The notes beneath the pieces were generated by a model, which ran no database searches, was not told the origin of the DNA, and worked only from the letters and a program-made list of their open reading frames with translations. Shown here piece by piece: positions 1-56,957 of a stretch of 64,000 nt of DNA. The DNA lies in contig JAUCBJ010001071.1 in NCBI GenBank assembly GCA_032718475.1, forward strand, positions 107,494 through 171,493, read 5' to 3'. A program made the translations under genes and the position numbers. Each line of letters opens with the position of its first letter. The first letter of the stretch is position 1. This stretch comes from Nemertoderma westbladi (taxonomy: Eukaryota; Animalia; Xenacoelomorpha).

Positions 1-223
1 CAAAGGTCAAAGGTCATTGTAGATAAACAAATAATAGGTTCTCACACGCTGATCAAAGGTCATTGTAGATAAAAAATGAGAATGTATGAGTAGGCTTTGG
101 TTTGGAAACCAAGGTATTGAAACCTCCTCAATATATGATTTATATTGATATTCAAGTGCTCATGCCATGAGCACTTTACCAACGGTCAAGAGGTTTTGAA
201 AGTTAATTAAAGTAATTTTTATA

Positions 224-1050
224 ATGACTTGCATTCTATATAGTTTAATCCTGGGATCAAAGGTTAATGTACTTTCAGAAAACAACATTGATCAAGCAAT
301 AGAGTCTAAAAAAACTAAAACAACTACATGGGTTCAAGAAATGGAAGGTAGAGAGTCAGGGTTGATATTTAATGGAATCACTGAAGCTAAATCAAAATTA
401 TCTGTTTTTTCAAATATGGGTGGGTCTAGTTTTATAAAACTACCTTTTAGATCAACCTATATTGTCAATGTGAAGAATGATGATGAAAAATGTTTCCTAT
501 GGAGCATATTAGCACACATCCAACCCAAATCAGAACATAGATATCGAGTTACTAAGTATAAACCATTTGGAAATATCCTAAATATGAAAGGTATAGATTA
601 CCCAGTCTCTTTAAAGTCAATTAACAAAAACAAAACAATTATGCTATTAATGTATTTTGTATTGAAGATAAGAAAGCTCTTCTTCCCCTTCGTATTAGTA
701 ATTTCAGAGATAGAGAGCAGATAGACTTGTTGCTTCTTACAGATGGTAAGAAACAACATTATACTTTGATTACAAAATTTTCATCATTTTTAAATCGCTT
801 CATTCGAACAAATACATCGCTTACTCGCTCGTTGTGTTACTGTCGGAATTGTCTGAGAAGTTTCTTTAAAACAGAAGGTCTACAAAAGCATGAAGAATTA
901 TGTTATGGGAATAAATCAGCAAAAATCATCATGCCTATAAAAATCAAAAATAATATTCTAAAATTCGAAAAGTATTGGTATAAGTCAAAGCTACCTTTTG
1001 TTATTGTTGCAGACTTTGAAAGCATAAATGTACCAATGAACCAGATTGAT
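224..1050 (+). pseudogene. Polinton/Maverick protein-primed DNA polymerase B, N-terminal fragment (frameshifted, truncated)
   Basis: Motifs GSSFIKLP, IVNVKNDDEKCFLWSILAH, GIDYPV, HYTLI..FS, YCRNCL..F..LQKHEELC and LPFVIVADFES (Exo I) are typical of Polinton pPolB; split over ORFs 224-724 and 727-1158. Confidence 0.85.
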
Positions 1051-2585
1051 CTATTATGCAAACAAATTCCTTACCAGACTGACAAAAAATTTCAAACTAC
1101 AGTAAAATTTCAACTACTTTTTTACACCAATTTATCACAAATTATCATATTCACCTAATTTTTCACTTAAAAACTGATGGATTCAAATTTTCTGAAAATA
1201 GTTCATATGTTCTGACTATATGAGCACAATATGATTAGAAGTTCATACAGAGTAGAGTTGCACCAATCCAAATGGTCTGTCCAATATATTTATTGTCTTG
1301 CTGTAACTAAGATTATTTATAAAATTGGTTTACTTAAGAAATCAAAACTAATAGAAAATTTTTATGGCTACTACTATGTGAAAACATGATTAAACCAACT
1401 AGTATTGATACTACCCAGTTCCTGACATTTGAACAAATGGGGTTGAGAACCCCGAAGTCAGCTTGCATGCATCTACTGTTAGAGAATGCCTATGAGTCTA
1501 ATCTTTTGACTGATATATCAAAAGTAGATTATCTAGCAGGCAATGGAGGTAATATGTTCCTTCAAGATGTGCCTGAATTGGAAATGTTTGTTGATGATCG
1601 TTATGTAATAATAATAATAATAATAATATAATAATATCTAAGATGTGTATGGGTATCTTCGAGAAGATCAAGTCGTGAGAACCAAAAGTTATATCATGTT
1701 AACAACTGGAAGGTTTGGGTCTGCCTCTTATATTGTGGAGAAGCTGAGGAGGGAGGCAACACAAACAATCGGTAAGAACTGTGGTGACTTTATACACACA
1801 AAAATATTAGCCTCTGTACCATTACAATCTCATGGACTGATAATGCAAACAGTGCATAAAATTGAAGGAGAGATGAATGATAAATATATCAAAAACTGGA
1901 AAAACCTGGAACAAAAAGAACCTATTGCTGTCTTTGTTGCAAAGTTGGATGTATCTGTAATCAACCTAGATGATCTGCAGGAGCACTTGGCTGAATTTGG
2001 TGAGTACTACAGACATGTGGATGGGGAATATACTCTGTTGACTACACAAAGGACTTTGCTGGAACCCTCGATAGGAAGGCAATAGTCAAACATCTAGTGG
2101 AAACAAAAGGTTGGAGGTTGGAAGGGACATTTCAAGCAGAATTGGAGGGTGATCAGCTCACAATTTCGGAAAACACTTCATCTGTGGGAAACCATGTGTT
2201 GACATACATCACATCTTGGGGCGGAAATACAATGAGAGTGAAGCTGTACAACAAAATTGTTTGTCAGTTTCAAGCAGGAGAAGTATTGGAGAATTTTGGA
2301 GGGCATTTGGCAGACTACGCTGATTGCAGGAACCCTGTCCTTCGGAAATCCTTAGAACATCCATTGATCCAGCAATATGGATGTACAAGAGTTGAGATAT
2401 CCTTGTACTCTATGAATTACATATCTAGAGATCTTGGCGTGGGAGTGATGAGAAGTGCATTAGAAAACATACAGCCATATCAGGGATTATTTGTTCAGCC
2501 AAGCGGGAGGAATCACTGGCTAGCTCTAGCAAAAAAAAAGGTTTCTGGAGTGAAAGTGCAGTGTAAGTTTGATATACAAGAAAAT

Positions 2586-5500
2586 AGACAAAGATGGGGG
2601 AAGATGGGAGACAAAGATGGGAGACAAAGATGGGAGACAAAGATGGGAGACAAAGATGGGAGACAAAGATGGGGGACAAAGATGGGGGACAAAGATGGGG
2701 GACAAAGATGGGAGACAAAGATGGGAGACAAAGATGGGAGACAAAGATGGGAGACAAAGATGGGAGACAAAGATGGGAGACAAAGATGGGAGACAAAGAT
2801 GGGAGGCAAAGATGGGAGACAACGATGGGAGACAAAGATGGGAGACAAAGATGGGAGACAAAGATGGGAGACAAAGATGGGAGACAAAGATGGGAGACAA
2901 AGATGGGAGACAAAGATGGGAGACAAAGATGGGAGACAAAGATGGGAGACAAATATGGGAGACAAAGATGGGGGACAAAGATGGGAGACAAAGATGGGAG
3001 AAAAAGATGGGAGACAAAGATGGGAGACAAAGATGGGAGACAAAGATGGGAGACAAAGATGGGAGACAAAGATGGGAGACAAAGATGGGAGACAAAGATG
3101 GGAGACAAAGATGGGAGACAAAGATGGGAGACAAAGATGGGAGACAAAGATGGGAGACAAAGATGGGAGACAAAGATGGGAGACAAAGATGGGAGACAAA
3201 GATGGGAGACAAAGATGGGAGACAAAGATGGGAGACAAAGATGGGAGACAAAGATGGGAGACAAAGATGGGAGACAAAGATGGGAGACAAAGATGGGAGA
3301 CAAAGATGGGAGACAAAGATGGGAGACAAAGATGGGAGACAAAGATGGGAGACAAAGATGGGAGACAAAGATGGGAGACAAAGATGGGAGACAAAGATGG
3401 GAGACAAGGATGGGAGACAAAGATGGGAGACAAAGATGGGAGACAAAGATGGGAGACAAAGATGGGAGACAAAGATGGGAGACAAAGATGGGAGACAAAG
3501 ATGGGAGACAAAGATGGGAGACAAAGATGGGAGACAAAGATGGGAGACAAAGATGGGAGACAAAGATGGGAGACAAAGATGGGAGACAAAGATGGGAGAC
3601 AAAGATGGGAGACAAAGATGGGAGACAAAGATGGGAGACAAAGATGGGAGACAAAGATGGGAGACAAAGATGGGAGACAAAGATGGGAGACAAAGATGGG
3701 AGACAAAGATGGGAGACAAAGATGGGAGACAAAGATGGGAGACAAAGATGGGAGACAAAGATGGGAGACAAAGATGGGAGACAAAGATGGGAGACAAAGA
3801 TGGGAGACAAAGATGGGAGACAAAGATGGGAGACAAAGATGGGAGACAAAGATGGGAGACAAAGATGGGAGACAAAGATGGGAGACAAAGATGGGAGACA
3901 AAGATGGGAGACAAAGATGGGAGACAAAGATGGGAGACAAAGATGGGAGACAAAGATGGGAGACAAAGATGGGAGACAAAGATGGGAGACAAAGATGGGA
4001 GACAAAGATGGGAGACAAAGATGGGAGACAAAGATGGGAGACAAAGATGGGAGACAAAGATGGGAGACAAAGATGGGAGACAAAGATGGGAGACAAAGAT
4101 GGGAGACAAAGATGGGAGACAAAGATGGGAGACAAAGATGGGAGACAAAGATGGGAGACAAAGATGGGAGACAAAGATGGGAGACAAAGATGGGAGACAA
4201 AGATGGGAGACAAAGATGGGAGACAAAGATGGGAGACAAAGATGGGAGACAAAGATGGGAGACAAAGATGGGAGACAAAGATGGGAGACAAAGATGGGAG
4301 ACAAAGATGGGAGACAAAGATGGGAGACAAAGATGGGAGACAAAGATGGGAGACAAAGATGGGAGACAAAGATGGGAGACAAAGATGGGAGACAAAGATG
4401 GGAGACAAAGATGGGAGACAAAGATGGGAGACAAAGATGGGAGACAAAGATGGGAGACAAAGATGGGAGACAAAGATGGGAGACAAAGATGGGAGACAAA
4501 GATGGGAGACAAAGATGGGAGACAAAGATGGGAGACAAAGATGGGAGACAAAGATGGGAGACAAAGATGGGAGACAAAGATGGGAGACAAAGATGGGAGA
4601 CAAAGATGGGAGACAAAGATGGGAGACAAAGATGGGAGACAAAGATGGGAGACAAAGATGGGAGACAAAGATGGGAGACAAAGATGGGAGACAAAGATGG
4701 GAGACAAAGATGGGAGACAAAGATGGGAGACAAAGATGGGAGACAAAGATGGGAGACAAAGATGGGAGACAAAGATGGGAGACAAAGATGGGAGACAAAG
4801 ATGGGAGACAAAGATGGGAGACAAAGATGGGAGACAAAGATGGGAGACAAAGATGGGAGACAAAGATGGGAGACAAAGATGGGAGACAAAGATGGGAGAC
4901 AAAGATGGGAGACAAAGATGGGAGACAAAGATGGGAGACAAAGATGGGAGACAAAGATGGGAGACAAAGATGGGAGACAAAGATGGGAGACAAAGATGGG
5001 AGACAAAGATGGGAGACAAAGATGGGAGACAAAGATGGGAGACAAAGATGGGAGACAAAGATGGGAGACAAAGATGGGAGACAAAGATGGGAGACAAAGA
5101 TGGGAGACAAAGATGGGAGACAAAGATGGGAGACAAAGATGGGAGACAAAGATGGGAGACAAAGATGGGAGACAAAGATGGGAGACAAAGATGGGAGACA
5201 AAGATGGGAGACAAAGATGGGAGACAAAGATGGGAGACAAAGATGGGAGACAAAGATGGGAGACAAAGATGGGAGACAAAGATGGGAGACAAAGATGGGA
5301 GACAAAGATGGGAGACAAAGATGGGAGACAAAGATGGGAGACAAAGATGGGAGACAAAGATGGGAGACAAAGATGGGAGACAAAGATGGGAGACAAAGAT
5401 GGGAGACAAAGATGGGAGACAAAGATGGGAGACAAAGATGGGAGACAAAGATGGGAGACAAAGATGGGAGACAAAGATGGGAGACAAAGATGGGAGACAA

Positions 5501-7106
5501 AGATGGGAGACAAAGATGGGAGACAAAGATGGGAGACAAAGATGGGAGACAAAGATGGGAGACAAAGATGGGAGACAAAGATGGGAGACAAAGATGGGAG
5601 ACAAAGATGGGAGACAAAGATGGGAGACAAAGATGGGAGACAAAGATGGGAGACAAAGATGGGAGACAAAGATGGGAGACAAAGATGGGAGACAAAGATG
5701 GGAGACAAAGATGGGAGACAAAGATGGGAGACAAAGATGGGAGACAAAGATGGGAGACAAAGATGGGAGACAAAGATGGGAGACAAAGATGGGAGACAAA
5801 GATGGGAGACAAAGATGGGAGACAAAGATGGGAGACAAAGATGGGAGACAAAGATGGGAGACAAAGATGGGAGACAAAGATGGGAGACAAAGATGGGAGA
5901 CAAAGATGGGAGACAAAGATGGGAGACAAAGATGGGAGACAAAGATGGGAGACAAAGATGGGAGACAAAGATGGGAGACAAAGATGGGAGACAAAGATGG
6001 GAGACAAAGATGGGAGACAAAGATGGGAGACAAAGATGGGAGACAAAGATGGGAGACAAAGATGGGAGACAAAGATGGGAGACAAAGATGGGAGACAAAG
6101 ATGGGAGACAAAGATGGGAGACAAAGATGGGAGACAAAGATGGGAGACAAAGATGGGAGACAAAGATGGGAGACAAAGATGGGAGACAAAGATGGGAGAC
6201 AAAGATGGGAGACAAAGATGGGAGACAAAGATGGGAGACAAAGATGGGAGACAAAGATGGGAGACAAAGATGGGAGACAAAGATGGGAGACAAAGATGGG
6301 AGACAAAGATGGGAGACAAAGATGGGAGACAAAGATGGGAGACAAAGATGGGAGACAAAGATGGGAGACAAAGATGGGAGACAAAGATGGGAGACAAAGA
6401 TGGGAGACAAAGATGGGAGACAAAGATAGGAGACAAAGATGGGAGACAAAGATGGGAGACAAAGATGGGAGACAAAGATGGGAGACAAAGATGGGAGACA
6501 AAGATGGGAGACAAAGATGGGAGACAAAGATGGGAGACAAAGATGGGAGACAAAGATGGGAGACAAAGATGGGAGACAAAGATGGGGGACAAAGATGGGA
6601 GACAAAGATGGGAGACAAAGATGGGAGACAAAGATGGGGGACAAAGATGGGAGACAAAGATGGGGGACAAAGATGGGAGACAAAGATGGGAGACAAAGAT
6701 GGGAGACAAAGATGGGAGACAAGGATGGGAGACAAAGATGGGAGACAAAGATGGGGGACAAAGATGGGAGACAAAGATGGGAGACAAAGATGGGAGACAA
6801 AGATGGGGGACAAAGATGGGAGACAAAGATGGGAGACAAAGATGGGAGACAAAGATGGGGGACAAAGATGGGAGACAAAGATGGGAGACAAGGATGGGAG
6901 ACAAAGATGGGAGACAGAGATGGGAGACAAAGATGGGAGACAAAGATGGGAGACAAAGATGGGAGACAAAGATGGGAGACAAAGATGGGAGACAAAGATG
7001 GGAGACAAAGATGGGAGACAAAGATGGGAGACAAAGATGGGAGACAAAGATGGGAGACAAAGATGGGAGACAAAGATGGGAGACAAAGATGGGAGACAAA
7101 GATGGG
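2586..7106. repeat. 13-bp tandem minisatellite (AGACAAAGATGGG)n, about 347 units
   Basis: Directly visible; near-perfect core with variant units only near both edges. Confidence 0.99.
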
Positions 7107-7909
7107 AGAAAGCTATATTGTGGAGGTTTTCGAGGTTGTCCTATATTTTGCTTCCAAATTAGAAATCAAAATGAAATTGAAAAGGGCACAGAAATAGCAC
7201 AGAAATGCTATTTCAAAGACCCCACTGCAAAAACAATACTTTGTTCATCGAAACTTCCAACACAGTGTAGGTCAGTTCAAGCAAGAATTCCGTTGGAAGA
7301 AATGTTGCCACCAACAGATTTCATAGAATGGACTTGGAGAAAAGAGCCTTGCAAATCATTGGGAACAGCAAAGATGCATTGGAAACTACAAGAGGTGCCT
7401 GAATACTTGCAAACACATCAAGTATCTTGGTTGTCAACGTGGAAAAGAGCGCAGAGGAACATTGATATTCTACATTATTTAGAATGTGAAAAATGGAGAC
7501 AAGAGGCACTGCAAAGAAGTGCAAGAAATCGAGAAGAAGTAGCCCTGATACACAAAAGGTTGCTGGAGTTTAAGAAAAGAAAAGAGCAGTTAAATGAACA
7601 GAAGGAATATGTTTTGCATCTATTGAAGCCTACTCCCATACAAAAAATTTGTGAGTTGGATGGTTAGAAACCATTACAAGTAACTGTGCTTGGATTTCGA
7701 CAAGCAACTGGACCCTACCAAAGATACGAAATGTTGCTTTCGATTGGTGGTGAAATTTCCAAGATATATTCTAACCGAGGCTTGGAGTGTGTTTTAGATG
7801 AATTGAGAGATGCTTTTCACAGAGCACAAGAGCAAACTACAAGAGAAATTTATTTTTTGGTTGATGCAGAGCTGGAAATTGAAATTCAAGCACCCAAAGA
7901 GTTCATTAA

Positions 7910-9464
7910 CCCTATTAAACCCGGGGGGGGGGGGTCAATATGACCCCCCCGTGTTTTTTTTATTATAATTCTGAAACAAACGCAGTTGGGAATCTGAAAT
8001 TTTATGACTTTTCCTAAAAATCTATTGCCTTCCTAGTAGTGAAAACCGTTTTCAAAAATATTCGGTACTTTTCGAGTTATAGCACCATTTTTTAACCCTA
8101 CTTTTGGCACTTTTTTTGAGACGTTTTTTGAAAATTACATTTCATTAAATATGAATTGTAACATATCTATTTTTGATTTACACCGGTTTTTTGGTGTTAG
8201 AAATTTGATGGAATTCATATAAATTGATTTAGAAATTTCAAACTTGTTTTTTTCGGTGGGTGACAAATTTTGGTGCCAGCACCAAATTTTGAATTATGTC
8301 AATTTTGTAAATTGATTGTTTGAAACGTGTTTTTTACGCAATTGGGGTTTTTTGGGGTTCTGGATTCGATGAAATATATACGAGTTGCACCAAGCGTATC
8401 AAACTTGTATTTTTCGGTGCTGTGTGCAAATTTTGGTGCTAGCACGAAATTTTGAAAATTCATTCGATAGATAAAATTGCTTGTGACAATTTATTTCTTG
8501 CGTTTTAGAGGTTTATGGCTGTTCTGAATTCAATGGAATAAATAATTATCGAACTAGACATCTCAAACTTGTATTTTTCGGATGTGGGTGCAAAATGTGG
8601 TGCTAGCACCAAATTTTGAAAACCATCAAATATATCAATTGATTGTGTCACCTTGTTTCTTGCGTTATACGGGTTTGTGATGGTTCTGAATTCAATGGAA
8701 TCAGTAAAAATTTCATAAGAGTTCTCAAACTGGTATTTTTCGCCAGTGGGTGAAAATTGTTGTGCCAGCACCAAATTTTGGAAAATATGGAAATTTATCA
8801 GTAGATAGTATCACCTTGTTTCTTGCGTTATACGGGTTTATGAGGGTCCTGAATCCGATGGAATCCATAAAAACAACACTGGACATCGCAAACTTGTACT
8901 TTTTGGTGATGTGTACGAAATTTGGTGCTAGCACCAAAATTTGCCAAATTACGCCGAAAAATACAAGTATCAATGATCTGGCATATTAGAAATGTATTCC
9001 ATTAGAATCAGCGCCCTCGAAAACCTGAAAATGTGAATTTATAGCATCGTATAAGTGAATTAAAAATTTTGTGTTCTACCTGAAAAGTGCTGGTTACTTG
9101 TTTTTTTCATTTTTTTCCTACGCAGAGAGGACTAAACAGCCATTTATGGTAATCATATCATTTTTAAATATTTTCCAATGTATTTTGCACCCCAGAAAAC
9201 CTGTATTGAAAAATAATTAGCCGAAAATGTAACTTTCAAATTTTGTGAAAATTGTGCACTACTTGTAATTTTGGTGCTGCAATATAACCACCCCAGTACA
9301 TTTTTTCGAAAATTTTTTTTTTCGGTCGGATCCAGACAAGTGATACCTACGTACAAACAAAAAATCAGACGTTTTCGTAAATATTTGTAGATTTTAGAGG
9401 GGGGGGGTCAATATGACCCCCTCCCGGTATTTGTACAGCATTTTATAGCCCGGTACTAATAGGG
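7910..9464. mobile_element. Non-autonomous piggyBac-like element (MITE) with about five internal ~162-bp repeats
   Basis: TTAA at 7906-7909 and 9465-9468; termini CCCTATTA...TAATAGGG; subterminal GGGGTCAATATGACCCC palindromes at both ends; repeated AAACTTGTATTTTTCG..GGTGCTAGCACCAAATTTTG blocks at 8240-8945. Confidence 0.9.
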
Positions 9465-11368
9465 TTAATGAGCAGCAGCAGATAATTATTTGGTATCCAA
9501 TTAAATTATTGAGAAGCCCAATTGAAGGCGAACAACAAAATATACAAGATAGATTGAAGAAAGTCGAAAATGAATATGAGAAAGCCAAGTCCATGTGCTT
9601 GGTTGAATATCCTGCAAAAGAGAAGAGCAGTGCAGTGTGAGAAAAGTGCTTGAATTGGAAGAAGGTGAATATCAATGTATAGCATATTGGAACCAGAGCT
9701 ATAGAGGAAAAGTGCGTCATGTATTATATACCTGCAGAACAAGGATGGTGAATCTGCGAGACCAGTGTATGGCTATTTCTTGCAGAGAGAAGTTGAGCAG
9801 ATACAGTGTGATTTGTCCACAGTATTATCTCCATTGCTAGTGAAAGTTGGAAGAACAAAGACAACACCACAGAAGAACAAGGATAGAATCATCACTTTAG
9901 CACACACTCTGCATAGCACAACAACCATGTCAGAGCCCTAGGTTTAGCACAACAATGGTAATTGTAGACATAACTGAAACTGAGAACAATTTTGCCTATT
10001 AAATAAAAGTGGTGCATACTGCACACATATGCAACAGACACCATCTGATGAAGAAAGCAATATAGTCCGATTCAAAAAATGCATACATTGTCTCATACAA
10101 TAAATTCCGAAACTTTTAGAGGATTTAGTGCAGCATGCGTTTGTCCTGGATTTTAACAAATTTTGACCAACAAAAATAGTATTTTGCAAAAGTAGGCTAA
10201 ATCTCTTGCCATAACACAAAATCTTAGCAGGTTAAATATTTGGGCAACTATGCATTTACATAGATGCATACTTACCTGCACTGCAGTCAAGTATACTTAC
10301 CCGCACTTTTTACGGGCATGAGTACATGCATACTTACCCACACTTTGAGCAGCAAGTTGTCAAAATGAAGCCTAAATGCATACCTACCTGCAATTTAGCA
10401 TCCCGGAGCTCATGAATTCTTACTTTTGCATGGATAAATTTTGTTAGTTATGCCTTGATTAAAAATTTGTCACCTATCGACTGTGTCCTGGGGAGAACAT
10501 CCCGGGTGATGTGAACCGGCCTTAACAGTAGATTATATCAAAGGTTTCGTTTTTTGAAACCTCGCAGGTTTCAGCTGGTGCAACCCAAAGCCTAATGAAA
10601 ACTGTCATATAACCCTAACCATGGGTATAACCCTAATCATATGAGGCCATGTCAGGTCAGGTCAGGTATTCTAGGTCATTGATCAAGAAAACTTGCCACC
10701 TCCATGCAGCATAAAGGAGGTGCCACCTGTAGCTGCATAGACCCTCTTACTAGGGCAAATCTGGTCCTGTAACTAGGACCCCCTTCGTTCTGGGATAAGG
10801 ACGCCCTTGGTCCTGGATTAAGGACCCATATACTTGGCTGCAGGGGTATATGGCCTGACCAGGCAGATGGTGATCTACCAATGGCTGGTCAGGAGTAGAG
10901 TGTTCTCATGTCCACTCTGAGAGCACTTCACTGCGACCTGCACCTGGCAGCAAGGGTACAGGGCATGACCCAGCAGATGAGCTGCAACAGCCAATGGTGG
11001 GTCATGTGCGCCAGAGTAGATATGGGTGATGGGCCTCATATCTGACTCCATTGCGACACCCACCCTGTGGAATGGCAAACCAGGGTGTGGGATTTGCCCC
11101 GAGAGCTGAGATATGAGGCCATAATCATTGAAATTTTGAGGAATTTCGCTTTGATTATGGCCTCATATGACATCGACATATTGTACTCTTCATTCTACGT
11201 AGATCACAGTATAGATAAAGGCTACAGTAATGTTATTCAATGTTTAAATTACGAATTGTATGTTTTTAATTGCTGAAAGCGACTACTAGAATCCACTTTT
11301 TTTTTGGGGGGGGGGGGGGGGGGGGGGAGGAGGAGTGGTCATGAAATTTTTAATGCACATGCTCTCAC

Positions 11369-12155
11369 TGTTCGCGCTTTCAGACCTTTAGCAGTTTAAC
11401 CTGCCAAATTTAGGTGCTTCTAGGTTATAAATCGACTTTAGCCTGGATACTTTGGATACACTACATTAGCCGAAGCCAGCCTATGCGCGACAATTCACCC
11501 GCTGGATATACCCGGGAGACTGGATTCGGAAGCTCTGACCTTATTGCGGTGTAGGCCTACTGTATTATTCGATTGATCGTTAATATATAATCTCTGACAA
11601 ATATTATTCACTTTCGGGAAATATCAACAGTTCCTTTAGGACGTGGCGCTCTAAGTATGTAAACAGAGTTATGACTTACACTAAACACAACGGGATGGCT
11701 AATGATTCACGTATAAAGCGCATTCTTTAGGAGATGCTTTGTTATCTGTCACAATCATGCACACTACCGCACAATGCTGCACACCGATCTGCCGACCTTC
11801 ACTAATTTTAGTCACATATAAAGAGAACAGCAACCGACACATGTAGTGCCTATGAAATAGCATTAGATTCACTCCAAAACCACTTTAATGTAAGTCGCAA
11901 TTGCTATATGTAACCTGTCTCTTACCTTCAGTATATCAAGAAGATTGGGGTTTTATGATTATTTATCGATATTATCCAAATATAATAATATTCCATCAAC
12001 TGATATAATTAATAACCGACAGTAAATAGCAGTAAAAATGCGGTGTTTGTAGGTGACAATATGATTTGTAACAATATGAATTGCGTTGATAACAGTTATA
12101 CGTTTCTATGATCAAAGCCTACTAATGTTTGGCTAAAGTCTGAAACATAGAAATT
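11369..12155 (-). repeat. 3' LTR (lacks its inner ~376 bp)
   Basis: Nearly identical to 22135-22925; identity stops after TAGAAATT. Confidence 0.92.
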
Positions 12156-16689: not shown

Positions 16690-19600
16690 TTAAGTTGGGG
16701 AGTCCCTAGATGTTTGTTGGATTAGGGAGGTGGTCGTGGGAAGAGTATCTTGCCTTCCATAGTTTCCGGAGAGTTCTCTGTCTCTTTCCAGTAAACATAA
16801 ACGACCAACTGGGCGATTGAGCTGCTGTGTCTCGAAGACAATTCCCGGTTTCTTAAAGTTACGTCGCATGACGACGAGTTCTACCGATCGCACCAAACCA
16901 TCATCCGAGATGTGAGTCTCGATGACACGACCTGTCTGCCACCGCTTACGTGGAAGGCAATTATAACACAACCGCTTATCCCACATGACTTCCCGTCTAT
17001 CCTTTAATGATTTCTTTAGGAATTCATCACACACATTCAAACGGTGGGGCCCATCACACAGAGCACATTTCGGTTTGATGTTACTTACCTTATTTTGAAT
17101 AACGTTGTGCACACTCGTTCTTTCTTCGGGCTTTCTTACCTAAATTATCTTAGGAGACGTAGGAGGGGTTTTTCTTACCTGTTCTCTCCTGTCATTGGTT
17201 CGAGACTTGAATTTACTTACGTCTTTAGGCGTTTTGTTGACATAATAAGATCTTTCAGTGTCTTTCCTGCTGTCCTCTTCTTGAGAAGCCTGGCTTTCGC
17301 CGTCGTTGGTATAACACACTGGTGTTACCTTTCTCCTAGAAACAGGTTTCTCACTTACCTTGTTTTCCGGTGTCTTCTCTCTGGACTGCTTTAGGAGCTG
17401 TAATTTCACTTCTCCATCTAAGAATGACATGAGATCAGCCATGGTAGGGTCTCGTCGTTGTTGTTCCATCATATATAACACTTTCTTATCCCAGCGTGTA
17501 CCTACTCCACCCTTCGGTATAGTAGAGGCCACGGCTCCAATAACCATAGAACTCTGATATTCATGAGACTTACCTAGCCAATCTAATTGTCTACAGATCT
17601 CCTGAATCTCATCGGAAAACTCTATAATCCCACTGCTAATGAACTTTCGGGGGGCTACCAATTTTGCATACAAATACCTAGCTATGTTATTCCTATTACC
17701 ATACCTGATGTTTAGGGTATCCCAAACTTGTCTTAGTCCATCTGGATGTCCAATAAACTTTAACGCCATTAACTTGGGAGATCCTTCCAAGCACTCGATG
17801 AGGAATCTAAGTTTCTCTCCGTTAGATAACACAGAGTTCTGTATGTTATCCTTGTAATATTCATTAAAAGGTTACCATTTCATCTCATCTCCATTAAACT
17901 TGACGATCTCTCCCACCTTTACCGCTTGACGGGCTTCGGTTCTAGCCATTTGACGCGTAAAACTTTCTTGGGCCATCGTATTATTTAATATCGAGTTATC
18001 GGTATATAAATTTCTCGGATTATGATCAGGTCTATATGGAATATCATTGTCAACAGGTTTATAATTACCCTTAATAGGGTTTACTATAGGAGTTTCTACT
18101 TCACTAGCAGTATAGATGCGTGTAGGCTCCACACCTTGCGCATGAAATACTTCAGACCTAACAGGTTGACACATTGTTACCGGGGTTGGTGGTATACCCC
18201 TTTGTGTATTTACTAATTTATCGCGTTCTAACGCGATACTCTGCTGCACCTCTTGCAACTCTAACCTACTTTCCCTTACTGTTCCTTTAAACTGATGAAC
18301 AGTCTCCTGCATCTGCCCAAGCAGGAGATTCATCCCCCGCCGCCCCTCATCCACCCACTCGACCGCCGAAGAGGGAGCCGCCAACATAGAGGCGGGCGAG
18401 CGAGAGACGACGGGCGATAAATTCTTGATCTCTCGCTCGGCGTCCAGGACGGGTTCGGACTCGGGAACAGCCCTACTGGGCACAGGTAGTTTAGTACTGT
18501 GCAAAGGGAATTTAGAGGTAGGTTCTGGGAGTACAGGTGTCTCTATCACCAAAGGGGTGGCTTCGAGAACAGGCCTAATTATTTCCGGTTCATCTACTAT
18601 AGTAGGGAGTCTTTCTACTTTAATAATTTGGTCTGTGAGTTCTGTACTACCTAAGTCTGTGCTAGCTAGTTGCCTTATAACAGCTGGGGGCAAATCAGGC
18701 AATTTCTGACGGTGGGACATTCTTCTACGCCTACTTAGACGAGATCTATTTCCTCCGCCTTCAGGATCGGTGGTATCGCCTTCATCAGAGGATGTAAATC
18801 CCTGTCGTTTGGGAGTAGATCGACTCATCATCTGCATTTGACTAGCTGTTAACTGTTTATTTATGCAGTCTTGATTCTCTTGAATATTTTCCAACTCTAG
18901 TTGGGTGGTCTCTTCAGATGCTCTTCGTTCTGCTTCTGCCACTGCTATCTTTCTTTCCGCCTCTGCCGCTGCCGCTTTTGCCTCTGCCGCTGCCGCCTTT
19001 CTTTCCGCCGCTGCCTCTGCCGCCTTTCTTTCCGCTTCTGCCTCGGCCATTGCCGCTGCTGCCATCTTTCTGTCTTCTATACGTTTTTTCTTGACTTGTT
19101 CTTCTCGGACCCTAGCGATGCGGAGTCTTTCATCAAATTTAGCTTGGTTCGCAGCTAACATTTCCGCATCGATTGCGTCCAACACAAGCTTGGCTCCTTC
19201 ACTATTAGGGCGAAGTCCATACAGCCGCCTCCTCAACTCTTCGTCACCTAGGAATCTTTGATAGTCTGACAGATAGATGTCAATAGCATCCCTCTTATGC
19301 AGTTTCTCAGCTGTCGCCTCACTTTCCACTTGGGAAAAGGTAGCGTCTGTTGATTCTCCATGGGTTGAGCGCTCATCCAGCCGAACTTTCCACTGGGCCG
19401 TTTCTTGAACCTGGAGACTCACCCGCTGGAACCAAGTCTTTACAGCAACTTGCAACGACGTGTCTTGTCTTCTTTTCGAAGCTTCCTCAAAGGCCGATAG
19501 GATTAGTCTGATTCTTAGAATTCTTTCTCGAACTTGATAAAGCAGCTCTCCCTGCTCTTGAGGTCCTTGGGGTTGTCGATACAGTTGTTCTTCTAATCGC

Positions 19601-20232
19601 TCCAAAGAGCTGAAGAATCCCTGTACGTATCCTGCTGCCGACCTCTTCCATACAGCTGGATCACTGGTGTCTTTTGTTACTCCCATCCTGTGTTACTCCC
19701 CTTCCGATAAGTCAAACGGGAGTCCGGGTCCGGGGAAGTTCCATTGCTACTCGACAATAGACTTCAGTTCCTCCCTTGTGTATCCCGCATAACTATCCTT
19801 GGTCGATCGCTTACTTCTCGCCCAATCAATTTGGTGTTCCTCCACCGCAATCAATACCCTAGTGAGTACGGCTGCAGGAAGGATGAGAAGGGGATCTGAA
19901 TAAACCGCATCTGCCATCTTAGCTCCGCGCTCGGGTGTCAGCTCTACAGTATCCGCACTACTGTAGCTGTCGGGTCGCTGAGAAATAAGTTCTCGGCTCG
20001 AGTGTTGCTGATGTTCCGCTGCTTCTTGGTCTCGCTTGACTTGGGCTCTAGTGCCTATGATGGACCTACGGTGTTGGACTAGCCTAGGGTCTGATACTAC
20101 TACTGGAGGGATGATCTTTCTTACAGTAGGAGGTGAGTTGAACTTCGGTCTCACACGTTCCACACTCCTATCTGGGTCACAGATGGTTGTATCTAGGAGA
20201 CTGTCTGACAGGTTTTGCTTTGTGTCAGACAT
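16690..20232 (-). pseudogene. BEL/Pao gag fused in frame to the integrase C-terminal tail
   Basis: ORFs 19747-20232, 17872-19686, 17140-17832 and 16690-17112 share one frame, separated by single stops; KFNGD..KW, LSNGEKLRFLIECLEG..WDTLNIRYG (DUF1759-like), CALCDGPHRLNVC, LCYNCL, then PRKRWQTGRV..DDGLVRSVEL. Confidence 0.88.
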
Positions 20233-22134: not shown

Positions 22135-23301
22135 TGTTCGCGCTTTCAGACCTTTAGCAGTTTAACCTGCCAAATTTAGGTGTCTTCTAGGTTATAAATC
22201 AACTTTAGCCTATGACGAGTATTGGATACACTACATTAGCCGAAGCCAGCCTATGCGTGACCATTCACCCGCTGGATATACCCGGGAGACTGGATTCGGA
22301 AGCTCTGACCTTATTGCGGTGTAGGCCTACTGTATTATTAGATTGATCGTTAATATATAATCTCTGACAAATATTATTCACTTTCGGGAAATATCAACAG
22401 TTCCTTTAGGACGTGGCGCTCTAAGTATGTAAACAGAGTTATGACTTACACTAAACACAACGGGATGGCTAATGATTCACGTATAAAGCGCATTCTTTAG
22501 GAGATGCTTTGTTATCTGTCACAATCATGCACACTACCGCACAATGCTGCACACCGATCTGCCGACCTTCACTAATTTTAGTCACATATAAAGAGAACAG
22601 CAACCGACACATGTAGTGCCTATGAAATAGCATTAGATTCACTCCAAAACCACTTTAATGTAAATCGCAATTGCTATATGTAACCTGTCTCTTACCTTCA
22701 GTATATCAAGAAGATTGGGGTTTTATGATTATTTATCGATATTATCCAAATATAATAATATTCCATCAACTGATATAATTAATAACCGACAGTAAATAGC
22801 AGTAAAAATGCGGTGTTTGTAGGTGACAATATGATTTGTAACAATATGAATTGCGTTGATAACAGTTATACGTTTCTATGATCAAAGCCTACTAATGTTT
22901 GGCTAAAGTCTGAAACATAGAAATTCCAAAGCCGGTGTTCTGGCATCAGGAAAAATACACACACTGACTGAATTGCGTGAGTTTCTGTATACAATGTCCA
23001 ACACAGAGTGAAAACCGCTCTGATTGGTCGACCGAACAAAGAACGAACAAAGAACAAAGAAAAAGTTACACGTGGACACAGCTGATAGATGTCGTCATCT
23101 GAGTTCCGATGTTTAGAGTATTTGGCTTATTGCGACATAAAATCGCTAGTTATGTCCGCTAAAGTACACATACAGAAGAAATGGCTTTTTATGTCCACTA
23201 AAACACCGGTACAGTAAGGAAACGGCTTTTTATGTCCGTTAAAACAACTACAGAGTACTTTGCGGGGAAAATAACCAGCTAATTCCGCAAAAGCCTTTAC
23301 A
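22135..23301 (-). repeat. 5' LTR (full length, 1167 bp)
   Basis: Begins TGTTCGCG on +, ends TTTACA followed by TSD CTCAC. Confidence 0.85.
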
Positions 23302-30129: not shown

Positions 30130-31299
30130 CTACCGGTGATTGTAGGGAAGTTTTTGGAGAGGCGACGTCGAACAGAACTTTTCTTTCCCGGACACTGAGC
30201 ATTCCTGAACACTGGGAATTTCCTGTTTGAGCATCAGTGGGGGAACCTCGCTGGTTTCAGTTGGGGAAACCCAAACCCTAATGAAAACTCATATAACCCT
30301 AACCCTAAGTCATGGTTCTCATTCCTCAAAATTTGTTTGATTATGGCCTCATATGACTTAGGGTTAGGGTTATATGGCAGTTTTCATTAGGGTTTGGGCC
30401 CTAACCAAAAAACTAAGCCATGTTTCTAACCAAAAAACGTAAAGTAGAGAGTATAATAAACAAAAAACACCAGCTACCATAAAAAAAGGAGCCACCATAC
30501 ATTTTTATTTTTTTGAACACAAATAAAAACAACAATAATAAACAACAATGTTGTTTTCTATAAACAACAATATTCTAGAATTATGATGTTATGAAAATTG
30601 TCTAAATTCATAATTTTAATAAAAATTCTACATTAAAAAATCAATATTTTGATAACCTAAAAAAACACTAGCTAGCTTTAAAAAACACCAGCTAGCTTTA
30701 AAAAACACTAGCTAGCTTTAAAAAAACACTAGCTACCATAAAAAACACAAGCTACCACATAAGCTTGTATCAGCCGACCATATTCTAGAATAACACACCC
30801 ACAAAAAATTTAATAAATAGAGTAATAAAATGTGTCAAAATGGGTTTTTGTGTTTTTCGAAGCACTAGCTACCATAAAAAACACTAGCTACCATAAAAAA
30901 CACTAGCTACCATAAAAAACCTAGCTACCATAGAATGTCATCATCCAGCTAACACAATGAGAAAAAATTGGTCAGAAATAGCTAAAAAATTTCATTAAAA
31001 ATGGGTACACAGGGCATACTAGTACCGACAACTCTTGCTGCACAACAACAATTCTATTAGCAGGAAATGATAAGTGTTAAATAATAGGCATACATTATTG
31101 TTTTCGAGAGAATACAATTCATTTTGAAACTTATTATATGTATTATATAGAAAAGTAGAGGTAGGTAAAACGTAAAACTAATGTTCCAGAATAAATCCAG
31201 CCCACTATTTGGTGAATACGAAATTAGGTGAATATTATAATTTATGATAAATCGTTCTCAAAAGTAGTTGAAATCTTAATGTAGTTTGAAATTTTTTGT

Positions 31300-31609
31300 C
31301 AGTCTGGTAACACCAACTGAAGCAAGTAAGGTTCCTGATTTGATTAAACAGACTATGGATCAGAATAATTTTCATAATGAATTGACCATGAAAAAGAAAA
31401 AAATAAAGTTTAAAGTTGGAGAGCGAGTGAGAATATTCAAGTGGAAATCACATTTTGAAAAAGGTTATACAGCAAAATGGACAAGATAAATTTTCATCAT
31501 AAGAAAAATAAACAATTCTGCACCCCCTACTTATGAATTAGAAGATTTGGAAGGTGAAGAAATCTATGGAAAATTTTACGAACATGAATTACAGCATACT
31601 GATTTTTAA
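31300..31609 (+). pseudogene. Polinton retroviral-like integrase, C-terminal fragment
   Basis: TPTEAS..KFKVGERVRI..FEKGYTAKWTR*IFII..PPTYELEDLEGEEIYGKFYEHELQ, with an in-frame stop at 31487-31489. Confidence 0.88.
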
Positions 31610-31633
31610 ATTTTTTTTAGTTATATATATAAA

Positions 31634-32047
31634 ATGCCTATGATTTATGATTTTGAAAAACATAAGTATAATTTACCTACTAGGGGAAGTGGATATCGGA
31701 ATGAGTTTCATAATGTGTTGCAGAACGAATTTCCGAAGAAATCTGGTGATGGAATTGGTAATATCATTTCTGGAGTAGGTAAAATTGCCAAAGTGGCGAT
31801 GCAAAATAAAGAAGTGTTTTCTGATGCTGCAAAGTCAGCCGGTGCAGTTGCAATTGCTACATCTAAAATTGTTGATGCTGTAAAGGCAGCCAAACGATTC
31901 AATGAATTACGTGAGATACAACGAATTAATGAATTTAGAGAAACAAAAAAGGAAAGTGCGAAAAACAGATTAAGTCCAGAAATTATTACCAAAATAAAAG
32001 AAATACCTACTCGCAATAAATATGGAGATGGATTTGAAAGATTTTAA
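31634..32047 (+). CDS. Polinton small basic protein with GxG motifs (putative virion core or membrane-lytic protein)
   Basis: Intact 137-aa ORF between integrase and capsid; RGSG, SGDG and YGDG motifs; amphipathic IGNIISGVGKIAKVA. Confidence 0.6.
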   Translation: MPMIYDFEKHKYNLPTRGSGYRNEFHNVLQNEFPKKSGDGIGNIISGVGKIAKVAMQNKEVFSDAAKSAGAVAIATSKIVDAVKAAKRFNELREIQRINEFRETKKESAKNRLSPEIITKIKEIPTRNKYGDGFERF

Positions 32048-32071
32048 TAATATTTTCTTATCTATAATAAA

Positions 32072-32584
32072 ATGAGTAGAGTAAATGAAAAAATCTTTCA
32101 ATTGGATGAACCAAACTATGTTAGTTACAATCGTAAAAAACAAGATTTCATAAAAATTGCACCAACTACTGGTACAGCTAATAATCTAAATCAAGGAGGT
32201 AATGTGATATCTTTTGAAGTTAATAACCAGGCTAACTTCTTATATCTTCCTGAATCATTTATTTATTGTGAATTTCAGTTTTCAAATGAAGCAGGAATTG
32301 CATTCCCTGGAAATAATACATTGGAACATAATTGGTTCCCTCGAGTTATTGATGATATGAGACTTGAAATTGGCAGTCAACAATTGGAAATTATAAATGA
32401 ACCTGGAGAATTTGATACAATTTTGAAATTTTTAATAAGAGGTAGAGATTATGCTAATGCAAATATTGAAGGATGGATCCCTGATACTGGAACTGGAAAT
32501 TCAGTTGCTAACATAAATCCTATACCAAATACCTACTGTACAGTTATCCTGACATGGTCAGTACACAACAGCCTACTGTCCTAA
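32072..32584 (+). pseudogene. Polinton major capsid protein (double jelly-roll), N-terminal part, truncated
   Basis: IFQLDEP..IAPTTG..NLNQGGNVISFEVNNQANFLYLPESFIY..N..P.VIDDMRLEIGSQQLEII resembles the Polinton/adintovirus MCP N-terminus; similarity is lost after ~32525. Confidence 0.75.
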
Positions 32585-39497: not shown

Positions 39498-39766
39498 AAC
39501 AAACACCTCGAAAAATACAGCTTGCCAACACATTGTTACTGTCACACCCCAATCACAACATCTAACAGTAGGCTGGTAGGCCCTACAGCGCATTTGTCAA
39601 GTTGTACCGGTACCCTCAGTCAGTCACTGCCTCATTACAGTTTTATAGTTAGTACTGTAACTGTAGTAGGCCTACTCCCGGCAGAACACTACAGTACTGC
39701 AGTACTACCGGTACTGAAACAGTGCATCAGTGAATAATTTAACATCAACAATCCTGCAATCTGACA

Positions 39767-40312
39767 ATGCGCGTAGAGAGGTGTTATTTCTGTTCCTGCC
39801 CTGTTTACCCTGGACACGGAATTTTGTTTGTGAGAAACGACTCGAAACAGTTCCAATTCTGTCGCCCAAAATGTCACAAAGCGTTTAACCGAAAGAAAAA
39901 CCCGAGGAAAGTGCGTTGGACGAAAGCGTTCCGGAAAGCCTCGGGAAAGGAGCTGACGGTGGACGCGGCCTTCGAGTTCGAGAAGCGGAGAGACTGTCCG
40001 TTAAAATACAACCGAGAACTTTGGGGTAAAACTCTGACAGCGATGAAACGCATAGAGGCTATTCGAACGCGGCGGTTTAATCGACACATCGAGAGGCGGT
40101 TGAAGAAGGGAGACGAACTCCTCAAACAAGCGGACATTAGGGAGGTTAATAAGAACATTCATTTAGCGACATCAGTTAAAGCACGTCGGAAGGAAGTTGT
40201 TATAGAACCGGAGACTACCGGAAGGGAACGTTCCGTTCCCATGGAGGAGGAGTTACTGGCCCCGGTTATTCATCACGAAACTCAGGATATGGAAGTTATG
40301 GAGGAAAATTAA
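39767..40312 (+). CDS. RSL24D1: Ribosome biogenesis protein RLP24 (L24e family), intronless
   Basis: [67 protein letters not shown]. Confidence 0.96.
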
Positions 40313-55310: not shown

Positions 55311-56957
55311 CTATATTTTGTAATAATTTATATTGACATTTGAGTTATTTATAATAGGTGGAGGAAATGTAGACGGGTAATTATAATTCCTCATCAAACC
55401 AAAGTTTATCCCTGAGCCTCCAACACCTGGGTATCCTGGACCTCCAACACCCTGTACACCTAGACCAACACCTGTGAAGGCTGACCCTCCTACACCACGA
55501 AATCTTTGACTTCCAACATCTGGGTGTCCTGGACCTCCAACACCCTGTACACCTAGACCAACACCTGTGAAGGCTGACCCTCCTACACCATGAAATCTTT
55601 GACTTCCAACACCTGGGTATCCTGGACCTCCAACACCCTGTACACCTAGACCAACACCTGTGAAGGCTGACCCTCCTACACCACGGAATCCTTGTCTTCC
55701 AACACCTTGTATACCAGGATCTCCAGCACCAGTAAACGCCCTGAAACCTGGATTGAGAAATTGTCCTCCACCTAAATGTCCAACACTCTCTACTTCTTCA
55801 AGAGCCGCGACAAGCAATTCATCATCATCATTGGCAATGACATGGATATCCATTTCAGGAGCAAAGTTGTCGATATTGTCTATTCTACGTTTTTTTGAGA
55901 AGACAGATGACAAGCTGTCAAACATTTCTTTCTTTTTAATTTCAGAGCATTTAGGGGCATATGCCCGAATGCTTCCTTCGTTCTTGTGCGCGGTCAAAGC
56001 GCAAATATGCCTCGCTTCAAATCCTGCCTGGTCTAAATGTGTAATGCAGGTGGCACGAATGCAGTGGTTGGTGTATTTTTGACTAAGCTCTAAGTTAACA
56101 CAGAGATTGGTCATAAATCCAGCTAATGTGTTGCGTCCAACAATCCTTCCTTCATACCACATTTTGTCTCTCACTTGTGGTTTCTGGCGTGGCTTCTGCC
56201 ACAAACAAGCACTTTGAGAACTTAGCTTTGATACATACAACTCATATGAGTGCAGCGGGCATTGATCGTCGTCAGGGTTTTCATAAAGCCGCCCTTCGTT
56301 TGCAATAGCCGTGTCATTGCGGACATGATTCTTATCAAGCTCATCCATTCCTTGTTCTAAATAGCGTAATCCAGTGGAATGGTCTACTTGAATAGCAAAA
56401 GTGCTTTTAGTCATTCCATAGAGATTTTCTCTTCCCCTGCGACAAAAGAAATATAGTATATAGAACAATACACTTTGCTGAAGCTTCTTAGGTTCACAAA
56501 GAGTTTTATCTATTGTGAAGTATTCCTTTATCTTTATAAGATCTTCTTCAATGATTTGCCTCTTATTCATTATAACGGCCTTTCCTTGCTTTTTTGTTTC
56601 TACACTCATCGCCGTAAACATCAGGTTAGCTTGACTAAACTCACTATCGCTAACTATATCAATATTGCGCTCGATTTTGAAATGTCTATTTAAAGATGCA
56701 CGGATGGCTTTCAGTGAGGTGAGTTTGTAAAAAGAATTATCTTCCTTTCGAATATTTGAATAAAATTCAAAGAGCAAACTAGGTAGATCGTCATTGCTCA
56801 ATGATGAAAGATCTCCTTTACCAGTTTCTTTCAGATACGATTGTAGTATCGCTATATGAGAACTCGTAGCAAGTTTGGTATTTTTGCTAATTCTATTATC
56901 TATTAAATAATTCTGTCTTTCAACAGAAACACTTTGGAATCTGTTTGTATAAGACAT
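55311..56957 (-). CDS. Crypton-type tyrosine recombinase (DUF3504/ZMYM/KCTD1-related) with Gly-rich tail
   Basis: Catalytic residues present: CRRGREN (R), DKNH (K), TNHCIRAT (HxxR), TAHKNEGSIRAY (H..Y); N-terminal FYSNIRK..YK..SL..IRASLNRH; uninterrupted 548 aa. Confidence 0.92.
   Translation of the reverse strand: MSYTNRFQSVSVERQNYLIDNRISKNTKLATSSHIAILQSYLKETGKGDLSSLSNDDLPSLLFEFYSNIRKEDNSFYKLTSLKAIRASLNRHFKIERNIDIVSDSEFSQANLMFTAMSVETKKQGKAVIMNKRQIIEEDLIKIKEYFTIDKTLCEPKKLQQSVLFYILYFFCRRGRENLYGMTKSTFAIQVDHSTGLRYLEQGMDELDKNHVRNDTAIANEGRLYENPDDDQCPLHSYELYVSKLSSQSACLWQKPRQKPQVRDKMWYEGRIVGRNTLAGFMTNLCVNLELSQKYTNHCIRATCITHLDQAGFEARHICALTAHKNEGSIRAYAPKCSEIKKKEMFDSLSSVFSKKRRIDNIDNFAPEMDIHVIANDDDELLVAALEEVESVGHLGGGQFLNPGFRAFTGAGDPGIQGVGRQGFRGVGGSAFTGVGLGVQGVGGPGYPGVGSQRFHGVGGSAFTGVGLGVQGVGGPGHPDVGSQRFRGVGGSAFTGVGLGVQGVGGPGYPGVGGSGINFGLMRNYNYPSTFPPPIINNSNVNINYYKI

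Follow-up and report, generated by a model that had tools for sequence, protein, structure and literature searches.

An inactivated copy of a multi-copy eukaryotic mobile element with a gene for a predicted Rep_trans-like nickase in Nemertoderma westbladi

The window analysed here comprises 64,000 nucleotides of the xenacoelomorph Nemertoderma westbladi (contig JAUCBJ010001071.1, positions 107,494 to 171,493 of the forward strand) and contains near its beginning a dead copy of an unnamed, multi-copy eukaryotic mobile element. The Rep-like gene of this element is genuine yet inactivated, with at least six breaks. Aligning intact relatives back onto the window reveals one gene on the + strand, which runs from an ATG at 1386 to about position 9938. 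A first-pass annotation of this DNA, made from its letters alone, had found the same start and had placed the end at 9840, about 100 bases before the homology stops. A core of 178 amino acids (2004-2537) matches 21 proteins among 228 candidates, the best of them with 60% identity and an E-value of 6.6e-61, and its homology is therefore far above chance. In a tree of 38 rows, none of which was dropped, the core of the window is sister to P0005 with a support of 97/100; the deeper forks of this family tree are uncertain due to long branches. For folds and searches only unbroken pieces of the window or natural intact proteins were used, and the gene of the window was left unmended.

The first piece of the gene (1386..1605, +) is 57% identical to residues 1-70 of P0005. 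Close to its end, at 1593-1595 (+), lies the invariant N-terminal Asp of the family, the first D of FVDD, which is found in 122/124 rows. It stands beside an insertion of about 40 bases bearing a (TAA)n repeat (1606..1644), which disrupts the gene and has stops inside; one contig of sequencing run X3 spans this site without the insertion. The second piece (1645..2004, +; 52% identity to P0005 residues 70-189) ends at a frame break near 2000-2019. This is the frameshift that the annotation had noted near 2005. Contrary to what had been supposed, the core is preceded by more than this one break, because the (TAA)n insertion also splits the gene. Furthermore, the peptide PTSIDTTQF had been taken for the N-terminal IDxL strand of a Rep protein. 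We rejected this assignment, as the peptide is part of an unconserved start of the open reading frame (ORF) and the real Asp is the one in FVDD.

The predicted catalytic core follows at 2019..2537 (+), with the motifs DxTxD (2040-2054), KxYNK (2241-2255) and RxE (2388-2396). The corresponding peptides SVDYTKD (2034-2054), KLYNK (2241-2255, its Tyr encoded by 2247-2249) and TRVE (2385-2396) had already been quoted in the annotation and are indeed present in that order, all on the + strand. Near 2540 about 25 codons are lost. Further breaks are a frame break at about 7110-7125, a stop codon at 7665 and, after 9470, several stops and frame breaks.

Two long interruptions separate the core from the remainder of the gene. 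The first, at 2586..7109 (+), consists of 348 copies of a 13-bp minisatellite. Its unit reads RQRWE, then KAILW past the array, which corresponds in register to KKWEKAVLW of the closest relative. This 4.5-kb array has expanded from 13 coding bases, and a foreign insertion was rejected as its origin because the unit is the gene's own coding sequence. Long tandem arrays are likewise located in the relatives at loci L002, L003, L015 and L018, directly 3' of their small second ORF. The homology continues at 7125..7904 (+) with the middle domain, a long helix and the first predicted OB-like domain (46% to P0005 424-572, 30% to P0016 434-716; stop at 7665-7667). The second interruption is an unrelated, high-copy non-autonomous DNA transposon (7910..9464). 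It is flanked by a TTAA duplication, bears CCCT/AGGG as inverted termini and is presumably piggyBac-like; 32-42 contigs per run depart from the window at 9468. The C-terminal pieces with the second predicted OB-like domain follow at 9561..9938 (+), carry stops and frame breaks, and match P0016 778-882 and P0012 739-833. It was thus right that the homology goes on past both interruptions, whereas of the two insertions that had been proposed only the second is one, the first being amplified coding sequence. The stretch 9941..10490 (+), whose right limit is approximate, is probably a non-coding 3' tail and includes short direct repeats (10261-10400). A very high-copy repeat is inserted at 10654-11109, just past the probable 3' end of the element.

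The protein family to which this gene belongs is large. A profile of the 21 relatives matches 1136 clusters out of 1.84 billion proteins with an E-value of 0.001 or below, 757 at 1e-10 and 288 at 1e-30 (clusters made at 50% identity; the best 150 of the 1136 were listed). Full-length members comprise 800-950 amino acids. Three of 30 clusters that were looked up carry organism names. These are the ciliate Tetrahymena utriculariae (KAL4501587.1), the sea slug Elysia crispata (KAK3743194.1), whose protein matches the family profile with an E-value of 4e-113, and Candidatus Baumannia, a bacterial endosymbiont. In the last case a full-length member, P0331 (MBS0032581.1), is labelled as originating from a metagenome-assembled genome; our guess is that it was carried over from the host.

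The genes are present in multiple copies and are not single-copy host genes. In the P0044 cluster all 11 members match the family profile; they stem from contigs of five lengths between 2.0 and 4.5 Mb, and three are full length. In two other clusters all members listed match the profile (15 listed of 30, and 15 listed of 16). Some cluster members are halves of one broken copy, and intact copies exist too, such as the three ORFs of 843 amino acids that one cluster contains. Cluster 5 was rejected as consisting of Rep copies throughout, since 5/15 of its members have no family match and P0208 has a match of 32 positions only. Diverged copies, some of them without the (TAA)n insertion, also occur in sequencing runs of the window's own species (three runs, two samples). 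Pattern scans, an insensitive method, yielded no relatives in GTDB genomes (0/20 and 0/77 stretches), in IMG/VR (two scans, 0/40 and 0/5 stretches) or in 50,697 phage records. L034 turned out to be a phage matched by chance and was excluded.

Studying the alignment of the family reveals a set of near-invariant residues. In the numbering of P0016, and counting rows that include broken copies, these are D62 (122/124), D206 (148/151), T208 (148/151), D210 (148/150), K274 (150/154), Y276 (150/154), K278 (153/154), R323 (151/155) and E325 (150/154). The pattern D...DxTxD...KxYNK...RxE is kept in 97-99% of the rows, and the same residues are invariant in 18/18 divergent members sharing 15-31% identity. 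Order and spacing of these motifs equal those of the replication initiator RepDE, which has D46, R140-D142-A144-D146, R189-Y191-K193 and R212-E214, with D46, D142 and E214 as metal ligands and Y191 on a strand (PMC4797284). The ligands of RepDE do not include both Asp residues of DxxxD, which the annotation had described as a metal-binding motif.

AlphaFold models were obtained for a full-length protein (predicted local distance difference test, pLDDT, 94; predicted template modelling score, pTM, 0.81) and for residues 1-358 of P0007 (pLDDT 90, pTM 0.87), and in both all conserved residues are located on beta-strands. The three candidate metal ligands D62, D206 and E325 (conserved in 97-98%) are modelled on the strands 60-70, 201-212 and 321-329, in this order. 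Y276, part of an R/KxYxK-type motif, lies on strand 270-277 of the full-length model; a Tyr on a strand distinguishes Rep_trans from HUH enzymes (PMC5714925). Among 48,161 solved chains the first match of the domain is RepSTK1 (Z 7.2, root-mean-square deviation 6.2, 180 aligned residues, 16% identity), and RepDE ranks eighth (Z 5.7). Inovirus proteins are among the top viral structure matches (E 1.5e-4; G2P 2.5e-3), and language-model features point to Rep_trans clusters (0.92, a match flagged as weak). Taken together, the predicted structure and the conserved residues make it very probable that the protein is a Rep_trans-like nickase.

Several results weigh against this assignment. TBP is practically tied with RepSTK1 in the fold search of the domain (Z 7.1, 157 aligned residues, 8% identity), and the Z of 7.2 for RepSTK1 is below 8, the caution line of the fold tool. 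With the full model, TBP chains occupy ranks 1-14 and three Rep_trans entries ranks 15-17. The top viral structure match is an early-transcription-factor-like protein of nucleocytoplasmic large DNA viruses (NCLDV; E 9.4e-5). Not one of 21 members matches the Pfam profile PF02486 at an E-value of 1 or below, and Pfam as a whole brought no useful match for the family. A profile alignment against 90 RepSTK1 relatives reached a score of 22 (E 0.04), which was equalled by one of 40 block shuffles and one of 40 column shuffles; this best alignment, not above the shuffles, sets DxTxD on DxAxD and KxYNK on RxYEK. The Arg of motif I is absent, the five commonest residues at this position being S, C, Q, D and E (145/151 rows); the Ser that stands in its place in the window, two positions ahead of the first DxTxD Asp, had been correctly noted and is a family trait. 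Motif II (T/SxY/ExG) is absent as well, with a Gly just upstream in register (G255, 153/156). The match to Rep_trans that the annotation had called for is a structural one of modest strength, and at the profile level nothing significant was found.

The fold scores raise the question whether the domain could be a DNA-binding module similar to TBP or to viral early transcription factors, whose conserved residues form no nicking site. TBP ties with RepSTK1 in fold score and the NCLDV proteins head the viral list. However, RepSTK1 itself is TBP-like in its sheet only (PMC4797284), highest identity and longest alignment both go to RepSTK1, five near-invariant motifs of acidic, Tyr and basic residues occur with Rep_trans spacing, and the protein is the sole large ORF of a mobile unit. 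Hence we regard a mere TBP-like module as highly improbable. The protein is predicted to work like Rep_trans enzymes, yet it is not a member of PF02486, because there is no Pfam match, the profile alignment does not exceed shuffles and the motif-I Arg is absent.

Other searches contributed little. Foldseek with the full model found nothing in the PDB at an E-value of 0.001 or below (RepDE on rank 48), the language-model atlas held nothing usable for the full-length protein, and sequence comparisons with PHROGs and the PDB yielded no informative match. A DDE_Tnp_4 match of one of 21 members (E 0.00095) was taken as noise, and a homodimer prediction gave no answer (score 0.00). The C-terminal third appears to consist of two beta-rich, OB-like domains. 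The matches behind these assignments are weak, which is a further point against the overall picture: RPA70N and LEF-3 with Z 3.4-3.7, POT1, RPA and RADX with E 0.006-0.05, and a phage single-strand-binding protein with E 0.008.

The 5' end of the element in the window is sharply defined. X2 and X3 contigs track the window through 1073 and then diverge, while other X2/X3 contigs begin at 1074 behind a different flank of 100 bases, track to 1316 and rejoin the ORF at 1413; therefore the 5' end is 1074. The fixed 5' end and the non-coding leader (1074..1385, +) start directly after TTA (1071-1073). A second copy of the 5' end, without a Rep gene, is located at 31046..31307 (-) and also starts directly after TTA on its own strand (31310-31221, with 90% identity across 91 bases; an alignment is possible for about 265). 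Apart from these two, the 64 kb contain no copy of the 5' end. The 3' end of the window copy we place only by inference at about 10430-10490: contig depth falls to the level of a single locus only at about 10400-10470, and another contig has 10283-10486 in common with the window before leaving it, but contig depth is no copy number.

The same architecture is found in relatives, of which 32 metagenome loci were studied. Nine of them, near-identical to each other, begin at exactly the same point, some 240 bases 5' of the conserved coding region, and behind this one start five different upstream flanks are found. Including the two junctions of the window, TTA is present at 7/7 junctions in two subfamilies. 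On their 3' sides the nine loci diverge no more than a few bases from the stop codon and continue as shuffled mosaics of three types. A precise end at a short motif combined with a variable other end, as seen in these nine loci, is a feature of HUH rolling-circle transposons. In the nine-locus group there is neither an inverted copy of the 5' end nor a visible target duplication.

Some loci carry additional features. The right ends of L005, L006, L007 and L012 have the same hairpin (arms of about 32 bases in L006, with a T-rich loop), and L008 departs from the shared right-end sequence just before it. In L017, L021 and L022 one copy is apparently nested head-to-head in the Rep gene of another. 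A conserved ORF of 92-96 amino acids is found in 10/32 loci (L001 copy at 3267-3542, -), and an ORF with helix-turn-helix, coiled-coil and hydrophobic parts in four (L001 3728-4393; L017, L021 and L022); the L001 copies of both have no Pfam match and neither ORF occurs in the window. A GACAAC/GTTGTC leader repeat is confined to some subfamilies and absent from the window.

Other data on the ends argue against a one-sided element. The contigs of the metagenome loci were assembled from short reads and their copies are near-identical, so that a 5' flank and a 3' side of one contig may have been wrongly paired. L001 and L026 have inverted copies of the 5' end on the far side (138 bases with 98.6% and 141 bases with 95.7% identity), and their junctions are ATAG and AATC instead of TTA. 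Moreover, neither empty sites nor circles nor new insertions were observed. In these two loci an element with two ends fits equally well. Here the nickase would cut at inverted end copies and move the enclosed unit, which in L001 comprises the Rep gene and the two small ORFs, and one-sided copies would be decayed or mis-assembled. Against this, neither the 3' side of the window nor the nine-locus group contains an inverted copy of the 5' end, the second copy in L026 cuts the Rep gene short in the manner of a nested insertion, the ends of L001 are tandemly repeated, and no target duplication was seen. We consider such a two-ended element improbable.

Both 5'-end copies of the window adjoin the only two Polinton patches found in the 64 kb. 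The first (200..1073, +), a target outside the element, is a fragment of a Polinton gene for a protein-primed DNA polymerase that is cut at the 5' junction. Positions 320-795 match the ORF just 5' of the DNA_pol_B_2 ORF in the viral contig L042 (E 2e-17), and 838-1035 match the start of this DNA_pol_B_2 ORF, identified by Pfam (E 3.2e-6). The second (31308..32540, +) is a Polinton remnant. It begins with a C-terminal integrase fragment that is cut at the junction, and this is followed by a small ORF and part of a capsid gene. Its integrase part matches the rve/Chromo integrases of 8/8 viral contigs (E 1e-13 to 1e-18), the core being gone, and its capsid part matches the double-jelly-roll capsid ORF of L039 (E 3.6e-7). 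Neither target gene continues elsewhere in the window according to tblastn with Polinton ORFs.

Among the relatives, three of the five flanks in the nine-locus group are sites within one Polinton polymerase-region ORF (L008, L009, L010 and L012; L006; L016), and the other two are a small gene and a segment that recurs in the 3' mosaic of a different copy. In total 5/32 loci have a Polinton flank at an E-value of 0.001 or below or via L009 (L006, L008-L010, L012), with L016 added by a 26-base match. Next to the gene, polymerase-like pieces are likewise present in L025 (E 9e-7 against the flank of L009) and in L023, P0214 and P0091, the link of the last three to verified Polinton ORFs being weak (E 0.006). 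A preference for Polintons is put in doubt by the many loci whose flanks match no Polinton ORF and by the fact that the 3.3% target size for Polintons (1212 matched bases, or about 2.1 kb with generous limits) was worked out post hoc.

Because of this close physical association, the gene could also be a variable accessory gene of Polintons that is shuffled by recombination and not an independent element. In L008-L010 and L016 (2/3 sites) the polymerase-region ORF stays in frame across the leader and continues as the Rep ORF, which would suit such a gene; fused polymerase-Rep gene calls also exist (P0214, P0350). However, L006 is out of frame, polymerase and integrase ORFs are cut at different codons and in both orientations, the gene is absent from 8/8 Polinton-like viral contigs (partial, 4-12 kb), and term look-ups in PMC8502044 and PMC11161782 found no such gene. 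We think that there is hardly any chance of this explanation being correct. The element interrupts Polinton core genes, and the basic proposal of the first-pass annotation is supported because none of the three findings it had named as fatal turned up when tested: the Rep_trans match exists at the level of structure, the D/D/Y/K/R/E residues are conserved among homologs, and the homologs are not single-copy host genes, while the partial Polinton-like viral contigs examined lack the gene.

A different relationship to Polintons is conceivable. The element could be a helper-dependent satellite replicon of Polintons or adintoviruses, similar to adeno-associated virus with adenovirus, which persists as a small replicon while a Polinton replicates in the cell, nicks its own origin and borrows the Polinton polymerase and possibly the capsid; the genomic chimeras would then be by-products of co-replication. 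Junctions with Polinton polymerase and integrase genes recur, many relatives reside on contigs of 3-6 kb with one or two small conserved extra ORFs, and inverted duplications or hairpins are found in L001, L006, L019, L026 and L029. On the other hand, no capsid-like gene was seen in any locus, terminal direct repeats were found in 0/32 contigs among those listed, the two pattern scans of IMG/VR gave no relative, and intact copies sit on megabase contigs. We therefore hold a satellite to be unlikely, and the same applies to its extended form, in which a replicon built around a Rep_trans-fold nickase and equipped with its own single-strand-binding domains would, as a non-HUH counterpart of adeno-associated virus, parasitise replicating Polintons, enter them by its fixed end and ride with them between animals and protists. 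The annotation had left the choice between an unclassified transposon and an endogenous virus family; the transposon that nicks DNA with a Rep_trans fold is the part supported, and the virus is not supported as such, as no locus showed a capsid gene.

In our opinion, the element is probably a one-ended rolling-circle-type transposon with a predicted non-HUH tyrosine nickase of Rep_trans fold and a likely preference for Polintons. Nicking, the 5'-phosphotyrosine and strand transfer are deduced here from the chemistry of RepD and RepSTK1. A divalent metal would be held by D62, D206 and E325 (P0016 numbers), and Y276 would cut a single strand at the fixed end, remaining bound to its 5' phosphate. 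A host or Polinton polymerase could then extend the freed 3'-OH and displace the strand; Pfam searches of members gave no match to a helicase family, including PIF1-type helicases. The displaced strand might be coated by the two C-terminal OB-like domains, and the bound 5' end would be transferred to a 3'-OH of the target directly behind TTA. With a loose termination, flanking pieces would be captured and the far half of the target gene often lost. As a speculation, replicating Polintons with their exposed strands and free 3' ends may be the source of the target bias as well as a vehicle between hosts.

Among known systems, the family most closely resembles Rep_trans/MOB_T proteins (RepD/RepDE, RepSTK1) and the Phage_CRI proteins of inoviruses (gpII, PF05144). 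They have in common the crescent TBP-like sheet (Z 7.2/5.7), the order and spacing D...DxxxD...R/KxYxK...RxE and the Tyr on a strand. The family differs in having no significant Pfam or profile match and neither the motif-I Arg nor TxYxG, in its size of 800-950 amino acids, which takes in a middle domain, a long helix and a pair of predicted OB-like domains, and in being eukaryotic, chromosomal and multi-copy. Rep_trans proteins are known from plasmids, phages and conjugative elements (PMC5714925) and, as far as PMC13107129 states, had previously been bacterial only. The latter paper describes Rep-Arvir (DUF7845, RepSNJ2), likewise a Rep_trans relative visible by structure alone, with matches to the TBP fold and with D/E, D, Y and E in the same places as in our family. 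Rep-Arvir was also predicted from structure and catalytic residues without a sequence signal, and its Tyr and two acidic residues proved essential (PMC13107129). It differs by its occurrence in archaeal viruses and plasmids, its KHYYM motif and its winged helix-turn-helix domain, and our family has no DUF7845 Pfam match.

With Helitrons, Replitrons and IS91 the element shares the orientation-specific joining of one precise end to a short motif in the target, a loose other end with flanking DNA, and tandem and nested copies; Replitron-1, for instance, has a precise left end after a short motif and a fuzzy right end (PMC10288648). In contrast, these elements rely on HUH enzymes, in which a helix carries the Tyr, whereas no HUH is found among the invariant columns of our family; Helitrons add a helicase and Replitrons carry terminal direct repeats. 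A Polinton preference of any of the three is not reported in the portion of the literature covered. Polintons and adintoviruses supply the flanks at many junctions, but the element itself lacks a polymerase, an integrase, an ATPase and a capsid, and it breaks such genes. Term look-ups in three Polinton papers (PMC8502044, PMC11161782, bioRxiv 10.64898/2026.10.13.758929) found no rolling-circle or Rep_trans gene, and full-text searches, whose scope left aside most subscription journals, Repbase and supplements, found no eukaryotic Rep_trans element. The element would thus be like Rep_trans and like rolling-circle transposons in its working, a member of neither, and a new kind if the predicted chemistry holds.

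The rest of the window appears to contain further mobile DNA. Direct repeats of 98% identity at 11369-12155 and 22135-22925 are possibly the long terminal repeats of a retrotransposon, presumably of the BEL/Pao type, whose putative Gag-like ORFs lie at 16690-19692 (-). An intronless ORF at 39743-40312 (-) seems to resemble the ribosome biogenesis protein RSL24D1/RLP24, and a 548-aa ORF at 55311-56957 (-) is, judging by a motif, presumably a Crypton-type tyrosine recombinase.

In the parts of the literature covered, all eukaryotic rolling-circle transposons are of the HUH type, and the Rep_trans fold is bacterial and, since 2026, archaeal. If our reading is true, it would mean a new transposase chemistry in eukaryotes, and Rep_trans would be extended to the third domain of life, with animals and a ciliate. 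The dead copy of the window is valuable mainly for its two junctions, while the intact copies make the chemistry directly testable. The junctions with Polinton polymerase and integrase genes, further, suggest a parasite of an endogenous virus and, with it, a testable route of horizontal transfer.

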